DNA from: an uncultured Bacilli bacterium
GTDB lineage: Bacteria > Bacillota_I > Bacilli_A > RF39 > UBA660
NCBI GenBank assembly: GCA_947628535.1
Contig: CANRAF010000003.1
Location: 22,350 to 86,349 of the forward strand
DNA: 64,000 nucleotides
Direction of reading: 5' to 3'
Shown here: one piece after another, positions 19,979-50,711 of the stretch
Layout of the letters: each line of letters starts with the position of its first letter
Position numbering within the stretch: position 1 is the first letter of the stretch
The notes under the pieces: model-generated
Told to the model about the DNA's origin: nothing
Databases searched by the model: none
What the model saw: only the letters and a program-made list of their open reading frames with translations
Position numbers and translations under genes: made by a program

Positions 19979-22546
19979 ATGCTGGAACTAGTTGATATTA
20001 AAAAAGATTATGCGATGAATAGTGAAGTAGTTCATGCTTTAAAGGGAATAAATTTAACATTTAGAGAAAGTGAATTTGTATCAATACTCGGACCATCTGG
20101 TTGTGGAAAGACAACACTTTTGAATATAATTGGAGGACTTGATAGGTATACAAGTGGAGATTTAATAATAAATAATGTATCAACAAAAAAATATAAAGAT
20201 AAAGATTTTGATAAATATAGAAATCACAAAATAGGTTTTGTTTTTCAAAATTATAATTTAATATCTCATTTAAATGTTCTTACCAATGTTGAGCTTTCAC
20301 TTACTTTATCTGGAATTTCTAAATCTCTTAGAAGAGAAAAGGCTTTAGAGGTTCTAGAAAAAGTTGGTCTTAAAGATCAAATATATAAAAAACCTAATCA
20401 AATGAGTGGCGGTCAAATGCAAAGAGTTGCTATTGCTCGTGCACTTATAAACGATCCAGATATAATTTTACTTGATGAACCAACAGGAGCACTTGACTCT
20501 AAAACAAGTGTTGAGATTATGGAACTTTTAAAAGAAATAGCATCTGATAAATTAGTCATTATGGTAACACATAACCCTGAACTTGCAGATAAGTATTCTT
20601 CGAGAATAATTAAACTTCTTGATGGAAAAATAATTGATGATTCTAATCCTTATAAAAACGAGCAGGATAAAGATGCTAAAAAATCATCTGAAAAAACATC
20701 AATGTCATTTTTTACAGCTCTTCATCTTAGTTTTAATAATTTACTTACTAAAAAAGGACGTACATTTTTAACAGCTTTTGCAGGTTCAATTGGAATTATA
20801 GGAATTGCGCTTATTCTTAGTTTATCAAATGGAGTTCAAAGTTATATTGATGGAGTAGAAGAAGATACTTTATCATCTTATCCGATAACGATTGAAAAAG
20901 ATGCTGTTGATTTTGCAGCTCTTTTAGAAGAAATGATGAAAATGAATCAAACAAATGATGATAATAAAAGTGGTAAAATAAAATCTAAAAATATTATGAA
21001 TGATATGTTAGAGACTATGACTGGGGATAAGAAAAGTAATAATTTAGAAAAGTTTAAGAAGTATTTAGATAAAAATTCTTTAGTAAAAGATTACACAAGT
21101 GACATACAATATAGTTATCCTCTTAAAATAAATGTTTATAATGAAGATGTAAATGATCAAATTGTAAGGGTAAACCCAAATACTATTATAGAAAAAATAG
21201 GACTTCAAGATGCTTATGAAATGGGATCTACTTTTATGTCTGAGAGTATGAATACTAATGATGTTTTTAAAGAATTATATAGTGATGAAGATTTACTTAA
21301 AAGTCAGTTTGAAATAGTAAAAGGAAAATTTCCTGAAAAGTATAATGAAGTTGTTTTAGTAGTTGATCAAAATGAAGAAATAAGTGATTATACTTTATAT
21401 GCTCTTGGATATTTGAATCAGGATGAACTTATTGATAATATGAATAAGATGTTAAAAGGAGATAAAGTATCTAAATCAAAAGATCTTTCTTATAATTATG
21501 ACGATTTTATAGGGGATAAATTTAAACTTGTTCTAAACACAGATATCTATGAAAAGGAAAATGGTATTTGGACTGATAAAAGTGATGATGAAAAATATAT
21601 AAAAGATATGGTGAAAGATAAAGAAAATCTTGAAATCGTAGGTATTATAAAACCTACTAACAATACTAATAATACTCTTATGTATGGTGGAATAGGATAT
21701 ACAGAAGATCTTACTAAATATGTTGTAGATAAAATAAAAGATGAAGAAATAGTTAAAGATCAATTAAAAAATAAAAATATTAACATTTTTACAGGTATGA
21801 AATTTAATTCTGACGAAGAATTTTCTTTAGATAACTTAACTATTGAGCAACAAAGATATATTATGGGACTTTCTGATAGTGAAAAATTAGATTTTTATGA
21901 AAGATATCAAAAATATAGTAAAGCAACTTATGAATCTAATTTAGAATCTTTAGGTTATGTTGATTTAGAAAATCCAAGCATGGTAAATATTTATGCTAAG
22001 GATTTTGAAACTAAAGAAAAACTTACTGATTTAATAAATGATTATAATAAAAAAGAAAAAAATGCTGGTAATGATGAAGATATTATAAATTATACAGATA
22101 TTGTTGGAGTGATGATGTCTTCTGTTAAAAGAATCGTTAATATGATTAGTTATGTACTAATAGCTTTTGTAGCAGTATCTTTAATTGTTTCATCAATAAT
22201 GATTGGTATAATTACTTATATTTCAGTACTTGAGAGAACAAAAGAAATTGGTATTTTAAGAAGTTTAGGGGCTTCTAAAAAAGATATATCAAGAGTGTTT
22301 AATGCTGAAACGTTTATAATAGGACTTGTAAGTGGAATTATTGGAATAGCAGTTACTATTTTAATTAATATACCTATCAACATAATAGTTAAGAATTTAA
22401 CAGATATTGATAAAATAGCAACTTTACCAGTTGGAGGGGCTATAATTTTAATTATAATAAGTATGATTTTAACTATAATAGCAGGTCTTATTCCTTCGAG
22501 GATGGCAAGTAAAAAGGATCCTGTAGAAGCTTTAAGAACTGAATAA
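19979..22546 (+). CDS. ABC transporter, fused ATPase + FtsX/MacB-type permease
   Basis: GPSGCGKT, MSGGQ, DEPT; C-terminal SVLERTKEIGILRSLGA and DPVEALR. Confidence 0.93.
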   Translation: MLELVDIKKDYAMNSEVVHALKGINLTFRESEFVSILGPSGCGKTTLLNIIGGLDRYTSGDLIINNVSTKKYKDKDFDKYRNHKIGFVFQNYNLISHLNVLTNVELSLTLSGISKSLRREKALEVLEKVGLKDQIYKKPNQMSGGQMQRVAIARALINDPDIILLDEPTGALDSKTSVEIMELLKEIASDKLVIMVTHNPELADKYSSRIIKLLDGKIIDDSNPYKNEQDKDAKKSSEKTSMSFFTALHLSFNNLLTKKGRTFLTAFAGSIGIIGIALILSLSNGVQSYIDGVEEDTLSSYPITIEKDAVDFAALLEEMMKMNQTNDDNKSGKIKSKNIMNDMLETMTGDKKSNNLEKFKKYLDKNSLVKDYTSDIQYSYPLKINVYNEDVNDQIVRVNPNTIIEKIGLQDAYEMGSTFMSESMNTNDVFKELYSDEDLLKSQFEIVKGKFPEKYNEVVLVVDQNEEISDYTLYALGYLNQDELIDNMNKMLKGDKVSKSKDLSYNYDDFIGDKFKLVLNTDIYEKENGIWTDKSDDEKYIKDMVKDKENLEIVGIIKPTNNTNNTLMYGGIGYTEDLTKYVVDKIKDEEIVKDQLKNKNINIFTGMKFNSDEEFSLDNLTIEQQRYIMGLSDSEKLDFYERYQKYSKATYESNLESLGYVDLENPSMVNIYAKDFETKEKLTDLINDYNKKEKNAGNDEDIINYTDIVGVMMSSVKRIVNMISYVLIAFVAVSLIVSSIMIGIITYISVLERTKEIGILRSLGASKKDISRVFNAETFIIGLVSGIIGIAVTILINIPINIIVKNLTDIDKIATLPVGGAIILIIISMILTIIAGLIPSRMASKKDPVEALRTE

Positions 22547-44888: not shown

Positions 44889-45569
44889 ATGTTTGAGGAA
44901 AAAGAGAAAAATAAAAACCGCGGTTTAACATTTACTATTTTGGGAATATTTGTTTTATTATTAACTAGTGCAGGTATTGCTATTGCAGTATATACTTGGA
45001 ATTACACAAGTGATGAGAATAGAATAAGTACAGGTGACATTTCAATGAGTTTACTTGAATCAACAGATGTTATTAGTATTGAAAATGCTTTGCCTATGTC
45101 AGATACAAAGGGGAAACAATTAGGAAAAAATGAATCTTTTGATTTTGCAGTTACTACGTATGCAAGTGGAAAACCTGGAGATATAAATTATAGTATATCA
45201 ATTACAGAAGATGCAGTTGATGAAGGGTATACTAAACTTGGAAGTGAAAATGTTAAAGTATATTTAACAGTTTTGCCTGAAAAGAGAAATGATGCGTATC
45301 AACAAGAAATAGAAGTTGTTGCACCTACTAAAGTAAGTGAAATTATAAAAGAAAATAATACTGGTAATTTTACTTTTAAAGATGAACAATATTCTAAACA
45401 TTCGCATACTTCTTCTGGTTCCACTATAACAACAAAATATAGACTTAGAATGTGGGTAGATAGCGAAGTAGATGCAAGCGATTGGAAAAAAGATTCTGAT
45501 TCTAAATATCAATATAAATTAAAAATAGGGACTGCTGGCAGTATTAAACCTATTGGAGTAGTTGAGTGA
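44889..45569 (+). CDS. Secreted TasA/CalY-like protein, family A, copy 3
   Basis: Paralog of 41885..42553. Confidence 0.65.
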   Translation: MFEEKEKNKNRGLTFTILGIFVLLLTSAGIAIAVYTWNYTSDENRISTGDISMSLLESTDVISIENALPMSDTKGKQLGKNESFDFAVTTYASGKPGDINYSISITEDAVDEGYTKLGSENVKVYLTVLPEKRNDAYQQEIEVVAPTKVSEIIKENNTGNFTFKDEQYSKHSHTSSGSTITTKYRLRMWVDSEVDASDWKKDSDSKYQYKLKIGTAGSIKPIGVVE

Positions 45570-45582
45570 GGAAGGTATAATT

Positions 45583-46344
45583 ATGAGTAATAAAAAAATA
45601 ATGGTATTATCAGTAGTTTCAGTCATAGTTTTAGTAATAGCGATAGTTGCAACATCATATGCAATGTTTACAGCAAATCTTAGTGGTACTAAAGCAAATG
45701 AATTAACAACAGGATATGTAACTTTAAATTGTGAAGAAACAACATTTAAACTTGAAGATACAAGCCCAATGACAGATGCAGATGGTATAAAAATGGAAAA
45801 TAATGAGGCAATATGTAAGCTTACATCAACAATGAAGGGTACAATGACAATTGGATATGATATAGCGTTAGATGTGATTGATGAATCCCAAGAAGATGGG
45901 GTTAATGAAGATAATGTAAAAATCCAGGTTACTAAGTCAACTAAGGGAGCTGAGGAGCAACCAAAGTATTTACTAGAAACTGATGCTAATAAAGGAGTAT
46001 ACATTAGTTCAATTCAGGATGAAACTGGGCAATATAATGATGATGAAGATCAGGGTTACAATTTAGATAGTGATACTATAACAGGTGATACAGAAATAAC
46101 TTATAAAATTAAAACCTGGGTTTCAAATTTAAAAACTACAGGAGCAGATGAGGAGGAAGTACCTAATATAAATGAAAGCAGTAGTTCTAGCACTTGTAGT
46201 AATCCTCAGCTTAAAACAAAAGAGGAGTGTCAATCTGCTGGTGAGATTTGGGGAGATGAACAAACATCTACTCAAAAAGGAGGAACATTTAGTTTTAAAC
46301 TTAAAATAACTGCAACTCAAGTATTAAGCGATAGTGGTGAATAA
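45583..46344 (+). CDS. Secreted TasA/CalY-like protein, family B, copy 3
   Basis: Paralog of 42571..43323; start MSNKKIM. Confidence 0.65.
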   Translation: MSNKKIMVLSVVSVIVLVIAIVATSYAMFTANLSGTKANELTTGYVTLNCEETTFKLEDTSPMTDADGIKMENNEAICKLTSTMKGTMTIGYDIALDVIDESQEDGVNEDNVKIQVTKSTKGAEEQPKYLLETDANKGVYISSIQDETGQYNDDEDQGYNLDSDTITGDTEITYKIKTWVSNLKTTGADEEEVPNINESSSSSTCSNPQLKTKEECQSAGEIWGDEQTSTQKGGTFSFKLKITATQVLSDSGE

Positions 46345-46357
46345 AATTTAATTTATT

Positions 46358-46391
46358 AAGAGAAGATTTTTAGTAAAAACTTCTCTTTTTT
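46358..46391 (+). terminator. terminator after the A/B array
   Basis: AAGAGAAG...CTTCTCTT stem plus a T run. Confidence 0.7.
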
Positions 46392-46474
46392 ATATATTAA
46401 TTTAAATTTATTAAATATTATAAATAATTTTATTTTTCGACATATAATTTAATGTAAATAAGAAAGGAGAAAAA

Positions 46475-47134
46475 ATGAAAAAAAGAATTTTATTTATAAT
46501 ATCACTATTTTTAATGATTACTGCTTTTATACCAAATGTTTTTGCAGCAACATATGGAGCTGTTACAGTTTTAACAAATCCAGATGATGTTGAAATAGTA
46601 ACCAATAGGGGAAAGACTACTATTACTTATAAAAACCCTATAGATATTCAAATAGCAGAAGAGGATGAAACACTTGGAAGACCAGGTGGTTCTGGATGGC
46701 TTGGAATGAGAATAAACGCTCCATCAGACAGCAATGAAAATAGTTTAAAAGATGCAACATATTATTCAATTGTAGAAGGTGTTGGAGAATCTAAAGCTAC
46801 TGCAGAAGTTAAAAAATTTTTAGATAAAAGAGATGGAAGTTGGTATATTGATATTTGGAGTGGTATTAGTCTTGATAGAATAAGAGAGGCTGAACAGAAT
46901 AATCTTAATTCAATTACAAGAGATTGGTATTTTGACTGGGATGGAAATGGAGTTTACGAACAAGAAGTTACAGTAGTTATGCCACTTATAAATATAAATT
47001 TAACTGATGAAAATGGAAATGTTTTATATACTCCTGAAAGTATGAGCGAAAAAGTCAAAACTGAAAAATTGGATAATATACCGAAAACAGGATTTATTTA
47101 TGCAATAGTAAATTATTTAAGTTATTTATTTTAA
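46475..47134 (+). CDS. Secreted protein with IPKTG motif and short tail
   Basis: Sec signal peptide ending PNVFA; C-terminus KLDNIPKTG-FIYAIVNYLSYLF. Confidence 0.75.
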   Translation: MKKRILFIISLFLMITAFIPNVFAATYGAVTVLTNPDDVEIVTNRGKTTITYKNPIDIQIAEEDETLGRPGGSGWLGMRINAPSDSNENSLKDATYYSIVEGVGESKATAEVKKFLDKRDGSWYIDIWSGISLDRIREAEQNNLNSITRDWYFDWDGNGVYEQEVTVVMPLININLTDENGNVLYTPESMSEKVKTEKLDNIPKTGFIYAIVNYLSYLF

Positions 47135-47214
47135 TGAGAAAGACTTTTAGATTTTGTTATTAAAATCTTTAATAGTCTTTTTTATGTCAAAAAAGTATAA
47201 AAATATAAAACAAC

Positions 47215-47244
47215 TTGACAATGCCCGGGGGGGGGTGATATTAT
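47215..47244 (+). promoter_or_regulatory. promoter with G9 tract in the spacer (TTGACA-N18-TATTAT, extended -10)
   Basis: TTGACA ATGCCC G9 TGA TATTAT. Confidence 0.8.
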
Positions 47245-47270
47245 ATATGTATAAATATGAAAGGAGAGAT

Positions 47271-48257
47271 ATGATGAAAAAGAAAATATTGTTTATGGCA
47301 TTTGCATTTGTAGTAAGCATGTTCATTGTTCCAAATGTTTTTGCAGCTAGTGTATCTGATATTAAATCATGGGGAGAAACAGGAACACATATTAAAGTTG
47401 AAGGAAGTGATAATAATTATACACTTACTTTAACAGGTGAACCAAAACAAGATCTTATTATTTCACAAGGAGAAACAGTTACCATTGATTTAGCAGGGCA
47501 TACATTAACTAATTATACTAACAATAATTCTGTTATTACAATTAATTCAGGTGCTACAGTTACTATTATTGATAGTAGTAATGACGGAAAAATTAGTCTA
47601 AAAAGTGATGATAATGGCACTGCTCCAGTTATAAATAATGCTGGTACTTTAACTCTAGAAAATGGAACTATTGATTCTACTAAGGCTGGAAGTACAGGAA
47701 TTTATAACAGTGGAACATTAACAGTTGCTGGTGGAGAAGTTAAAACAAGTGTAAATGGCGCATGGGGTCTTACTAATGTAGGAACTGCGACTATTACAGA
47801 TGGAACATTTACTCAAGGAAATGACTTTTCAGTAGTACTTAATGCAGGTACAATGACAGTTGAAGGTGGAAATTTTGTTGCTGCAGATGGTGGTTCACAT
47901 AATTCATTAATTACAAATAAAAACGATGATGGAACTGCTAGTATGACAATTAATGGAGGAACATTTGATAGTACAGGAATTTTCTATAATGAAGATGGAG
48001 ATAGCATAGTAATAACAAGTGGAAATTTCGCAAGTGATGTTTCTGAGTACTTAGCTGATGGTCTAGTAATGGAACAAGATGAAGATGGTAATTTTATAGT
48101 AGTAGATGCTCCAGAAATACCTGACGATAATACAAATAGTGAAGAAAATAATTCTACTACTGTTGTAAACAAAGTTATAGATAAAACAAAACTTGATGAT
48201 GTACCAAAAACAGGAAGTATTTATTCAGTATTAAATTTCATGAATTATTTAAGATAA
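47271..48257 (+). CDS. Secreted beta-helix-like surface protein with VPKTG motif and short tail
   Basis: Signal peptide ending PNVFA; N.GTLT..GG.F repeats; KLDDVPKTG-SIYSVLNFMNYLR; AAGGAG RBS. Confidence 0.75.
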   Translation: MMKKKILFMAFAFVVSMFIVPNVFAASVSDIKSWGETGTHIKVEGSDNNYTLTLTGEPKQDLIISQGETVTIDLAGHTLTNYTNNNSVITINSGATVTIIDSSNDGKISLKSDDNGTAPVINNAGTLTLENGTIDSTKAGSTGIYNSGTLTVAGGEVKTSVNGAWGLTNVGTATITDGTFTQGNDFSVVLNAGTMTVEGGNFVAADGGSHNSLITNKNDDGTASMTINGGTFDSTGIFYNEDGDSIVITSGNFASDVSEYLADGLVMEQDEDGNFIVVDAPEIPDDNTNSEENNSTTVVNKVIDKTKLDDVPKTGSIYSVLNFMNYLR

Positions 48258-48262
48258 TAAAT

Positions 48263-48300
48263 AAGACTATTGAATATAATGTTTCAATAGTCTTTTTTTT
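48263..48300 (+). terminator. intrinsic terminator
   Basis: AAGACTATTGAA/TTCAATAGTCTT stem plus a T run. Confidence 0.8.
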
Positions 48301-48336
48301 GTGTGTAAATATAAAATATGACAAAAATAAAATAAC

Positions 48337-48367
48337 TTGACAATACCCGGGGGGGGGGTGATAATAT
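48337..48367 (+). promoter_or_regulatory. promoter with G10 tract in the spacer (TTGACA-N19-TAATAT, extended -10)
   Basis: TTGACA ATACCC G10 TGA TAATAT. Confidence 0.75.
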
Positions 48368-48388
48368 ATTTATAGAAAGGAGATAATT

Positions 48389-49411
48389 ATGAAAAATATT
48401 AAATTTATGTTAGTGGCAGCTATATTTGCAGTATTTGGAATGGTAAGTGTAAATGCAGCAACACCACAAAATCTTTTAGATTGGAAGGTAGCAGATGGAA
48501 CATGTAGTAATAATGTTTGTGATTTAAAATTAAATCAAAAGGCGGTTCAAGATTTAGAAATTGGCGCTGGGCAAGTGGTTACACTTGATTTAAATGGCTT
48601 TGAATTTACTAATTTTTCTGATGGTACATCAAATAAAGGTAAATTATCAGCTATTTGGATACTTTCTGGAGGAGAACTAACTATTAAAGATACGAATAGT
48701 AATGGTACTGGGAAAGTATATATTTCAGGTGATGATACACTTCCTGCAGTTAATAACCTTGAAGGTGGAAAATTAACTATTGAAGGAGGTATTTTCGAAG
48801 CTAGAAAAGCCGGAGGAGATGCTATTCATAATAGTGGTGAATTAACATTTACAAATGGTACAGTAAAAACTACAGTAGATGGCGCATGGGGATTAGTAAA
48901 TGAAGGTACAGCAGTAATCAACGGAGGAACATTTGATCAAGGAAATGATTATTCCGTAGTACTTAATGCTAAAGATATGACTATAAATGATGGAACATTC
49001 AATGCTACTGGTGCAGGACATAATGCTGTTGTTAGTAACGTTGGTAAATCTTCAGATGCTCCAGCAAAACTTACTGTTACTGGAGGAGATTTTAATGCAG
49101 AAGATAATGCTAAAATATTTTCTAATGGATTAAATGATGAAGGTGAGAATAGCACAATAGCTGTTAGTGGCGGTACATTTTCAAACGAACTAAAAGCAGA
49201 ATATTTAGCAGATGGTTTAGTAATGGAACAAGATGAAGATGGTAACTTTGTATTAGTAACTGAACCTGATGAACCAATTGATGATCCTTCAAATGATGAA
49301 AATAATTCTACTACTATTGTAAACAAAGTTTTAGATAAAACAAAACTTGACGATGTTCCAAAAACAGGAAGTGTTTATTCAGCATTAAGTTTTATGAAAT
49401 ATTTAAGATAA
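48389..49411 (+). CDS. Secreted beta-helix-like surface protein, paralog of 47271..48257
   Basis: Signal peptide ending VNA; the same repeats; KLDDVPKTG-SVYSALSFMKYLR. Confidence 0.75.
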   Translation: MKNIKFMLVAAIFAVFGMVSVNAATPQNLLDWKVADGTCSNNVCDLKLNQKAVQDLEIGAGQVVTLDLNGFEFTNFSDGTSNKGKLSAIWILSGGELTIKDTNSNGTGKVYISGDDTLPAVNNLEGGKLTIEGGIFEARKAGGDAIHNSGELTFTNGTVKTTVDGAWGLVNEGTAVINGGTFDQGNDYSVVLNAKDMTINDGTFNATGAGHNAVVSNVGKSSDAPAKLTVTGGDFNAEDNAKIFSNGLNDEGENSTIAVSGGTFSNELKAEYLADGLVMEQDEDGNFVLVTEPDEPIDDPSNDENNSTTIVNKVLDKTKLDDVPKTGSVYSALSFMKYLR

Positions 49412-49466
49412 TATAAAAGACTACTTGAAATTATTGTTTCAAATAGTCTTTTTTTTGTGTTAATTA

Positions 49467-49664
49467 TTATTCGTTTTCCTCAACACTAATAGCGCCTGTA
49501 GGACAGTTTTCTTTTGCATCTTTTACTAAATCTTTATTATTATCTTTTACTTTACTATTTAGTGCATATGCAATACCGTTATCATTTATGTCAAATTCAT
49601 CAGGAACTAAAGCTGCACAAGCTCCACATCCAATACATAAATTATCTACTACTTTTACTTTCAT
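49467..49664 (-). CDS. Ferredoxin (single cluster)
   Basis: CIGCGAC...CPTGAI. Confidence 0.92.
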   Translation of the reverse strand: MKVKVVDNLCIGCGACAALVPDEFDINDNGIAYALNSKVKDNNKDLVKDAKENCPTGAISVEENE

Positions 49665-49769
49665 TTTTACCTCCTAAAAATATTATATAATAAAAAATTC
49701 AAAAAATAAAATGTTTTCTTTTTTTATTATTTATGTTATAATTTTTATAGTCAATGATAGGGTGATTTT

Positions 49770-50711
49770 ATGTATAGTAGAATGGAAAAATATGATGTAG
49801 ATTCAACTGAAAAAAAGAGAACTACAAGAAATGAAAAACTATATAGTGAAGTACAAAATATGAATATAGATTATGTTGATATTAATGTTGATAATGCTGT
49901 TGAACTTTCTGCGAATAATAATGGAAAGTCATCTCGTGAAGATTTTCAAAAGCAACGTGAACTTGATAAAATTTTACCAAGACATGAAAAAAGCAGTAAA
50001 ATAGTGTCAACTGAAGTTGAGCCTAAAGAAGATAGAGTTTATGATATTGATGAAATTTTGAAAATGGCTAGAGAGAATAAACTTTTTGAAGATGCTGATA
50101 AAAAAAGATTAATTAATACAGAATATAATATTTTAACGAAACTTGATGTTCAATCATTAAAAACTGAAGAGATGAAGAAAGAAGATTTACGTAATTTAAT
50201 TGATGATATATATTCAAAAGAAAAAAAACCTGAGAGAAAAAAATATCCACGTAAAGTGGAAGAGAGACTACTTAATGATTTGTTTGATGATTATGAAAGG
50301 GAACCTGAACTTGATGAAGAATTAAAATTACAAGAAGAGGTAAGTGAAGGGGTTCTTAATAATATTTCTTTAAACGATAATTCTGAAAATAATATAGCTG
50401 CAAATGAATCTTCAGAAGAAAGCGATAAACAAATAACTGAAGAGGAAGACAAGACTGAAGATGCTAGTATTGCAACGTTGATTGGAAAAGATAAATTTTC
50501 TAAGAAAGAAAAAAAGAAAAATAAAAAAGAGAAAAAAAATAAAATAGGTGATTTTGAAGAAGAATTTAATGACAAAAAAAATGAAGAAGTATATGATGAT
50601 TATATAGAAGAAAAAGAAGGTAAGGGCCTTTTAATTGCAATTATAGTAGTTGTTATATTAATAGTAATTACATGTGGTTTCTTTGTTTATGAATACTTTT
50701 TTGGATTATAA
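49770..50711 (+). CDS. acidic protein with C-terminal TM anchor
   Basis: Highly charged 313-aa ORF with a single C-terminal hydrophobic helix. Confidence 0.7.
   Translation: MYSRMEKYDVDSTEKKRTTRNEKLYSEVQNMNIDYVDINVDNAVELSANNNGKSSREDFQKQRELDKILPRHEKSSKIVSTEVEPKEDRVYDIDEILKMARENKLFEDADKKRLINTEYNILTKLDVQSLKTEEMKKEDLRNLIDDIYSKEKKPERKKYPRKVEERLLNDLFDDYEREPELDEELKLQEEVSEGVLNNISLNDNSENNIAANESSEESDKQITEEEDKTEDASIATLIGKDKFSKKEKKKNKKEKKNKIGDFEEEFNDKKNEEVYDDYIEEKEGKGLLIAIIVVVILIVITCGFFVYEYFFGL

Follow-up and report, generated by a model that had tools for sequence, protein, structure and literature searches.

The AT-rich genome of Campylobacter jejuni, an organism not known to have MutS and MutL, carries many G9–G11 tracts, mostly intragenic, and in the reduced genome of Mycoplasma hyorhinis each gene of the vlp surface multigene family has its own promoter with a poly-A spacer. 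Poly-G runs between the -35 and -10 elements are described in one study (PMC7864442) for two systems: porA of Neisseria meningitidis, the expression of which depends on a 17-base-pair (bp) spacing, and tp0126 of Treponema pallidum, where transcription is best at 17 nucleotides (nt). According to the same text, most poly-G tracts of at least 8 across the genome of T. pallidum, which has a G+C content (GC) of about 52.8%, vary in length in vivo, with clear variation at 76% of 17 targets. In Bifidobacterium breve UCC2003, G10–G12 tracts in sortase-dependent pilus genes vary within the population, and the paper that describes them (PMC9187656) also mentions G tracts in promoter spacers, without analysing them. 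Here we analyse two poly-G tracts found in a window of 64,000 nt (the whole stretch of DNA under study, positions 22,350 to 86,349 of contig CANRAF010000003.1, assembly GCA_947628535.1) from an uncultured Bacilli bacterium; each tract lies in the promoter spacer of one of two paralogous surface-protein genes. A search of the open-access literature, under an assumed lineage name, found nothing relevant on phase variation in this lineage.

G runs in promoter spacers of the window and the genome

Both genes are preceded by the same succession of elements. Promoter 1 reads TTGACA, ATGCCC, G9, TGA and TATTAT, with a spacer of 18 bp, and promoter 2 reads TTGACA, ATACCC, G10, TGA and TAATAT, with a spacer of 19 bp; at both loci, the G run is placed between the -35 and -10 of the gene's own promoter. 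Our re-reading agrees with an earlier inspection of the same DNA (the sequence-only reading), which had described TTGACA, a poly-G run and an extended -10 before both genes. In a consensus scan of positions 45500–50000 the two promoters score highest, each agreeing with the consensus at 11 of 12 positions, although promoter-like sites as a whole are not in excess there (31, against 28±5.5 in shuffles). Each promoter lies 23–32 nt 3' of a strong terminator and 25–30 nt 5' of a ribosome-binding site and ATG. Since each gene has a terminator on its 5' side and a promoter and ribosome-binding site of its own, genes 1 and 2 form separate transcription units.

We consider that the two tracts are probably slipped-strand promoter-spacer switches of the porA/tp0126 type. 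Slipped-strand mispairing during replication would add or remove one G and so alter the spacer by 1 bp, and this change would raise or lower transcription of one monocistronic surface-protein gene. A population would then consist of cells with differing combinations of sortase-anchored, beta-helix-like surface proteins and, with every gene in a monocistronic unit, the level of each protein would be set independently of its neighbour. The kind of switch is already well known, and the feature itself is real and non-random; that slippage takes place at both loci, that tract length affects transcription, and which lengths are on, is what we infer.

The genome that contains the window (G000) comprises 933,275 bp in 20 contigs, at 26% GC, and is 93.6% complete; the window is part of its contig C3 (98 kb, 26.3% GC). 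Across the genome we found 23 G/C runs of 8 or more, where base composition predicts 0.16 (and 0.02 with a minimum length of 9). This is far more than chance would give and bears out the earlier remark that the runs stand out in AT-rich DNA. Fourteen of the runs are G10 and five are G9, the others being two G11 and two G8, one of the latter cut by a contig start. When oriented by the nearest gene, all 23 have G on the sense strand.

Twelve of these tracts begin 6–9 nt after a perfect TTGACA and have a -10-like hexamer behind them, in eight cases within TGA-TAWTAT as in the window. Each of the twelve promoters is followed by a gene for an envelope protein, recognised by a signal peptide, a transmembrane segment or a prepilin leader. 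Six of these proteins have a PKTG tail (one is truncated by a contig start), two are large and carry a GFxxxE leader of the prepilin type (NCBIfam TIGR02532), two are small membrane proteins with a zinc ribbon, one of which has an FxLYD domain, and the remaining two have signal peptides. G9, G10 and G11 are all present among near-identical promoters of this one genome. The prepilin-leader pair (G000:C1:50766 and C2:23419) consists of proteins of at least 773 amino acids (aa) each, with cysteine-rich ends, behind promoters with G9/G10 spacers. Their position behind tract promoters suggests that pilin-like surface structures seem to be switched too.

Of the other tracts, most lie within genes for a family of very large surface proteins (one member has 2,426 aa), 18 nt from the beginning of the coding sequence. 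Seven members carry G9 or G10 (C1:35545, C1:78416, C1:148019, C3:97390, C5:17667, C5:49584 and C19:1), preceded by a ribosome-binding site and start that are conserved; the reading frame is kept in four of the seven and lost in two, and a contig start truncates the other. C1:78416 and C5:49584, which have near-identical flanks and G9, are in frame, and C1:148019, with G10, is out of frame. Further coding tracts are in ATP-grasp ligase paralogues; a search with the 524-aa ATP-grasp protein of this genome gave only one near-identical protein, a C-terminal portion of 307 aa. From their sequence context, the two tracts of the window belong to a set of putative poly-G contingency loci spread over the genome, of which 12 lie in promoters and the others near the 5' end of coding sequences.

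Several contig ends (C12:82, the ends of C16 and C18, and C19:1–8) coincide with a tract or with the promoter of a PKTG gene or are no more than about 100 nt away from one, and the assembler seems to break at repeated promoters that carry G runs. As contigs break at the tracts, the tract counts are lower bounds and the lengths may be off by one.

We compared the spacers of the tract promoters with those of ordinary promoters, defined as TTGACA...TAnnnT pairs that have no G run and agree with TATAAT at five or more of its six positions. Such pairs numbered 3, 8, 4, 11, 29, 8, 6, 9, 6 and 4 at spacers of 13 to 22 bp, respectively, with a peak at 17 bp, whereas a control hexamer gave a flat distribution without the 17-bp peak. 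The twelve tract promoters have spacers of 17 (one), 18 (three), 19 (seven) and 20 bp (one), so that one or two slips would reach or leave the optimum. Judged by the consensus register, the assembled states would mostly lie one or two bases above it. Where the run is directly followed by TATAAT or TATTAT, a tract promoter offers no alternative register, and the spacer is still 18–19 bp.

Recurrence of the arrangement among relatives

The pattern TTGACA-N6-9-G8 occurs in 7 of 41 genomes (G000 being counted in both numbers), with many copies only in G000, in G022, from another genus of the same family, and in G033, from another family; the reversed pattern has 0 matches in the 41 genomes. For a looser pattern, TTGA-N2-11-G9-N0-6-TANNNT, the search covered 121 genomes, each from a different genus of this family of uncultured gut bacteria with genomes of about 1 Mb. 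The pattern gave 174 matches in 22 of the 121, several registers per site being counted, whereas the reversed pattern gave 0 matches in all 121. The raw G9 counts of two genomes, G024 and G014, are not to be trusted, as both have G runs of up to about 30 at contig starts or ends that look like artefacts of two-colour chemistry.

Within single genomes, the number of G residues, taken from pattern match lengths, varies between promoters that are otherwise alike. In G051 the family TTGACAAATATGC-Gn-TATCCT has n = 9, 9, 10, 11, 11, 13, 14 and 14, with spacers of 16–21 bp; one of the G14 copies has TATTCT at its end, and in one G9 copy the run is preceded by AATATAC. The TTGACAAAACGCTCT family of G057 comprises five G9 and eight G10 copies (spacers 18 and 19 bp), a family of G022 with a 9-nt element and TATGAT behind the run has one G9, eight G10 and two G11 copies (18–20 bp), and TTGAAAGACCAAT-Gn-TATATT in G055 is present as seven G10 copies and one G11 copy, with spacers of 17 bp (seven) and 18 bp (one). 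The tract may be placed beside the -35, centrally, or beside the -10. In most matches with a clear -10 the spacer totals 15–21 bp, and in some it is much shorter; TTGACTTA-G10-TATGAT of G130 reads as 12 bp, and its true -10 may lie further on.

Sixteen congeners and 60 other genera were searched for homologues of the window proteins; the only one found outside the species is in G057, one of the 60 genera, at 43% identity. Its promoter reads TTGACT-C-G10-TAGTTATCG-TATAAT, with the run adjoining the -35. To judge by these promoters, what the gene family retains is a G run in the spacer, and not the run's position. In five congeners, 38 tracts of G9–G13 were examined; most are in the 5' coding region of the multicopy surface-protein family, where they occupy the same position as in G000. 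One of the five (G006) has three promoter-spacer tracts behind TTGATT and no usable copy for a frame count; in the other four, 26 copies had both an upstream start and the long downstream frame within the retrieved piece, and the two share a frame in 6 of them, the start codons being putative.

A scan of genome contigs for TTGACAATRCCC followed by G8 returned one match and no second genome of the species. The match (CACZPR010000032.1, 1548–5567) is in a metagenome-assembled genome from rumen, labelled Spirochaetaceae, with 41% GC, in which an identical TTGACAATACCC, then G9 and TATAAT, with a 15-bp spacer, precede a 156-aa lipoprotein-like gene. In metagenome contigs, with the run loosened to G6, the scan gave 9 matches, all in unrelated DNA of 55–71% GC and with G6–G7.

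The two genes and their products

The proteins encoded by genes 1 and 2 are 51% identical (E 3e-75). Both have an N-terminal signal-peptide-like segment and a C-terminal DDVPKTG followed by 12 residues and R; the VPKTG is followed by the hydrophobic residues SIYSVLNFMNYLR or SVYSALSFMKYLR, and the chain ends in R. A signal peptide, an xPxTG motif with a hydrophobic stretch and a basic end, and sortases in the genome (four matches) are what is expected of sortase substrates, the PKTG tail being shorter than classical sorting signals. A Pfam search assigned no family to any of the three paralogues of the window, and NCBIfam gave none for the first and third, gene 1 having only a signal-peptide match below the cut-off.

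The AlphaFold2 (AF2) model of the gene 2 protein, which was built from five paralogues and homologues and has a mean predicted local distance difference test score (pLDDT) of 73.5, shows an all-beta, solenoid-like body at residues 22–265, then a low-confidence linker and a C-terminal helix. Foldseek with this model gave 0 matches against PDB at E ≤ 0.001; the weak matches were right-handed beta-helix proteins (pectin methylesterases, pectate lyases, Ag43 and HxuA). An Atlas search also points to beta-helix proteins, its nearest clusters being from Bacillota. The signal peptide, the VPKTG tail, the four sortases and the beta-solenoid-like model point to surface-exposed products, and we suggest that genes 1 and 2 encode predicted sortase-anchored, adhesin-like beta-helix proteins.

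Among the nine complete PKTG-tailed open reading frames (ORFs) of the genome, five have a tract promoter, two have none, and two are at contig ends without assembled upstream DNA; one more PKTG-tailed gene, cut by a contig end, is also behind a tract promoter. In the DNA upstream of the third paralogue of the window (46345–46474) we found a terminator and AT-rich sequence, and no G run. The promoter of another PKTG paralogue, C12:170–1213, starts with AACTTGACAATG as the tract promoters do and then has no G run; this promoter may be related to them but without a tract, and is possibly constitutive.

Two candidate features of the region were rejected. A terminator-like call at 47222–47237 reflects only the pairing of CCC with the G run. 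A frame of 367 aa that starts at TTG 47154 and passes through promoter 1 and the G9 tract into gene 1 is taken as a spurious N-terminus, because it has no ribosome-binding site and overlaps the terminator; it is a trap for gene callers.

Table 1. Positions in the window of the two tract promoters, their genes and the flanking features.
Feature	Position	Strand	Basis
Third paralogue, 219 aa, IPKTG tail, no G tract upstream	46475..47134	+	ORF list
Terminator of the upstream paralogue, isolating promoter 1	47132..47192	+	Fold -17.5 kcal/mol, z -5.1, 0 of 200 shuffles as good, T run after
Promoter 1, -35 hexamer TTGACA	47215..47220	+	Sequence; top promoter-like site of the region
Promoter 1, G9 tract in spacer	47227..47235	+	Sequence, genome run count
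Promoter 1, extended -10, TGA-TATTAT (TGATATTAT), spacer 18 bp	47236..47244 (TATTAT 47239–47244)	+	Sequence and consensus scan, TG before the second hexamer
Gene 1, ribosome-binding site AAAGGAGAG	47260..47268	+	2–5 nt 5' of ATG 47271/47274
Surface-protein gene 1, 328 aa; signal peptide, beta-rich body, DDVPKTG tail	47271..48257	+	ORF, tail, homology
Gene 1, intrinsic terminator	48258..48305	+	Terminator scan; fold -14.4 kcal/mol, z -5.5
Promoter 2, -35 hexamer TTGACA	48337..48342	+	Sequence and consensus scan
Promoter 2, G10 tract in spacer	48349..48358	+	Sequence, genome run count
Promoter 2, extended -10, TGA-TAATAT (TGATAATAT), spacer 19 bp	48359..48367 (TAATAT 48362–48367)	+	Sequence
Promoter 2, alternative -10 register GATAAT, spacer 17 bp	48360–48365	+	Consensus scan
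Gene 2, ribosome-binding site GAAAGGAGA	48375..48383	+	5 nt 5' of ATG 48389
Surface-protein gene 2, 340 aa	48389..49411	+	ORF, homology, AF2 model
Gene 2, intrinsic terminator	49410..49465	+	Fold -15.2 kcal/mol, z -5.7

Alternative explanations and comparison with known systems

The sequence-only reading had put the tracts forward as candidates for phase variation. The proposal finds strong support in the twelvefold recurrence of the design before envelope proteins, in its presence in the family where reversed patterns find nothing, and in the variation in G number between like paralogous promoters. What does not carry over is the assignment of on and off lengths. It had been proposed that G8 would give the optimal 17-bp spacer, the assembled states being intermediate and off. 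This fits the TGn-TAWTAT register and the genome's own 17-bp peak, but the -10 of promoter 2 is ambiguous: it may be TAATAT (19 bp) or GATAAT (17 bp), and in the latter register, TTGACA-17-GATAAT, it is G10 that makes 17 bp. Owing to this ambiguity, the sequence does not say which lengths are on and which are off.

The register of promoter 2 is one of several points that weigh against slipped-strand switching. MutS and MutL look intact (frames of 859 and 597 aa, respectively), so that the organism is without the mismatch-repair defect of Campylobacter and Helicobacter. The TGn extended -10 may make the promoters partly independent of the -35 and of spacing. The G-strand bias is not predicted by a pure length ruler and leaves room for a role that depends on orientation. 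The tract lengths were read from metagenome assemblies of low coverage and may be wrong by one base. Lastly, no length variation was seen at the two loci, the material being only 3–5x contigs of one sample, which break at the tracts. A search for the stretch found five public sequencing runs, four of them (X1–X4) from one rabbit gut metagenome sample and one (X5) from another study, with a word share of 0.05; X5 holds only relatives, at 90–95%. In the Logan contigs of X1, X2, X3 and X5 no indels were listed at the tracts, and contigs stop at or near both of them. A 317-nt contig of X1 (record 1) crosses G9 with 0 gaps and ends at 47244; record 2 of X1 starts at 47249, record 18 of X3 ends at 47235, and record 5 of X1 starts at 48349.

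The strand bias is an argument for regarding the G run as a sequence-specific element, read in one orientation by RNA polymerase or a factor, which would co-regulate the envelope deterministically, any variation in length being incidental. As a spacer pattern, poly-C has 2 matches in 2 of the 121 genomes, one of them being the other strand of a G site, against the 174 poly-G matches, and the bias in G000 is complete. Moreover, consensus spacers of the tract promoters cluster at 19 bp and not at 17, and spacers of the 19-bp class mark activator-dependent promoters in other systems. We nevertheless think this explanation unlikely. Promoter families have different sequences around the tract, its place within the spacer is not fixed, equally long tracts inside coding regions create frameshifts, and the bias is confounded, since all 23 tracts and also 385 of the 443 long ORFs are on the GC-skew-positive strand, which makes transcription direction and replication strand inseparable in G000. 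A long-spacer promoter of the MerR type could be thought of for promoter 2, with its 19 bp, but no dyad was found there and no MerR_1-family match in the genome at its 93.6% completeness. Quite unlikely, in our view, is that the tracts are hypermutable and have little effect on expression, the extended -10 tolerating changes in spacing, so that they would be a mutational by-product spread with duplicated promoters. The TGA before the -10 hexamer in eight of the twelve tract promoters would agree with this, as would the many copies in paralogous families with a common promoter and 5' untranslated region. However, runs expected 0.02–0.16 times per genome are kept in 22 of 121 genera with different flanks, they occur only before or inside envelope genes, and the spacer total stays near 16–21 bp wherever the tract sits in it.

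The sequence-only reading had also offered a CsoR/RcnR-type G/C-tract operator. A metal-sensing repressor would then control the surface genes, which we consider very improbable. The genome does encode one CsoR-family protein (C10:2967–3206, E 1.5e-29), and the operator there is also in a TTGACA-17-TATAAT spacer and starts with ATACCC, like that of promoter 2. That operator is, however, a perfect dyad, TACCCCTATAGGGTA, whereas the tract promoters end in GGGTGA and have no such palindrome. The full motif TACCC-N3-11-GGGTA is confined to the csoR operon and one other site (C1:131970), a relaxed ACCC...GGGT is present in only 3 of the 12 tract promoters, the flanks of the other tract promoters are unrelated, and the genes concerned are not metal genes. 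The operator of RcnR has the motif TACT-G6-N-AGTA, and TACT-Gn-AGTA has no site in the genome. Nor would an operator account for the variable number of G residues or for the tracts in coding regions. The csoR-copA-type operon itself has its dyad at C10:2859–2873, and its 103-aa csoR-family gene overlaps the start of a heavy-metal ATPase-like ORF. That the tracts are due to chance or to a sequencing or assembly artefact, such as two-colour poly-G, is scarcely credible, although the long end-of-contig G runs of G024 and G014, and the several contigs of G000 that end at or near tracts, are of the kind an artefact would leave. Both tracts are internal to the 98-kb contig and have a conserved functional context, the chance expectation is 0.02–0.16 runs, and the X1 contig crosses G9 without gaps, a crossing that is not independent support, as X1 is from the same sample as X2–X4 and maybe the window's own source.

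If slipped-strand switching of the spacers is correct, a gut commensal with a genome of less than 1 Mb has about two dozen mutable sites that shuffle its surface proteins, the shuffled set being sortase-anchored beta-helix-like, pilin-like and very large wall proteins. Such a surface-shuffling strategy is best known from pathogens. The presence of a gene in metagenome-assembled genomes of this kind would then say little about its expression, and the assemblies break at the tracts. We also see a small but real chance that the poly-G is an orientation-locked element, with G always on the non-template strand, in which hypermutation would be coupled to recognition by RNA polymerase or a dedicated factor, and which would control the whole variable surface repertoire while mismatch repair is intact. 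The family-wide spread, together with the near-absolute G-strand bias, forms a natural data set on the origin of such promoters and on spacer sequence versus spacer length.

Among the described systems, the two loci resemble porA, a surface-protein gene whose sigma-70-type promoter also has a G run as part of its spacer. They differ from it in that porA is one locus of a Gram-negative pathogen, whereas here the design is predicted from sequence at 12 promoters of a genome of about 1 Mb with a Gram-positive-type envelope and sortases. In the tpr genes of T. pallidum the spacer is free of tracts, which are instead found around the -10 and the start site, and at 26% GC the tracts described here are far more conspicuous than in that GC-rich genome. 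With B. breve the organism shares the life of a gut commensal, sortase-anchored surface proteins and G tracts, although the tracts studied in B. breve lie in the coding sequence of a high-GC actinobacterium. The vlp promoters of M. hyorhinis have poly-A where these have poly-G, and C. jejuni, unlike the present organism, is not known to have MutS and MutL. New here, relative to these systems, are the density of the tracts (12 in promoters and about 10 in coding sequence in 0.93 Mb), their spread over 22 of 121 genomes taken one per genus of the family, and the G-strand bias of the spacer tracts.

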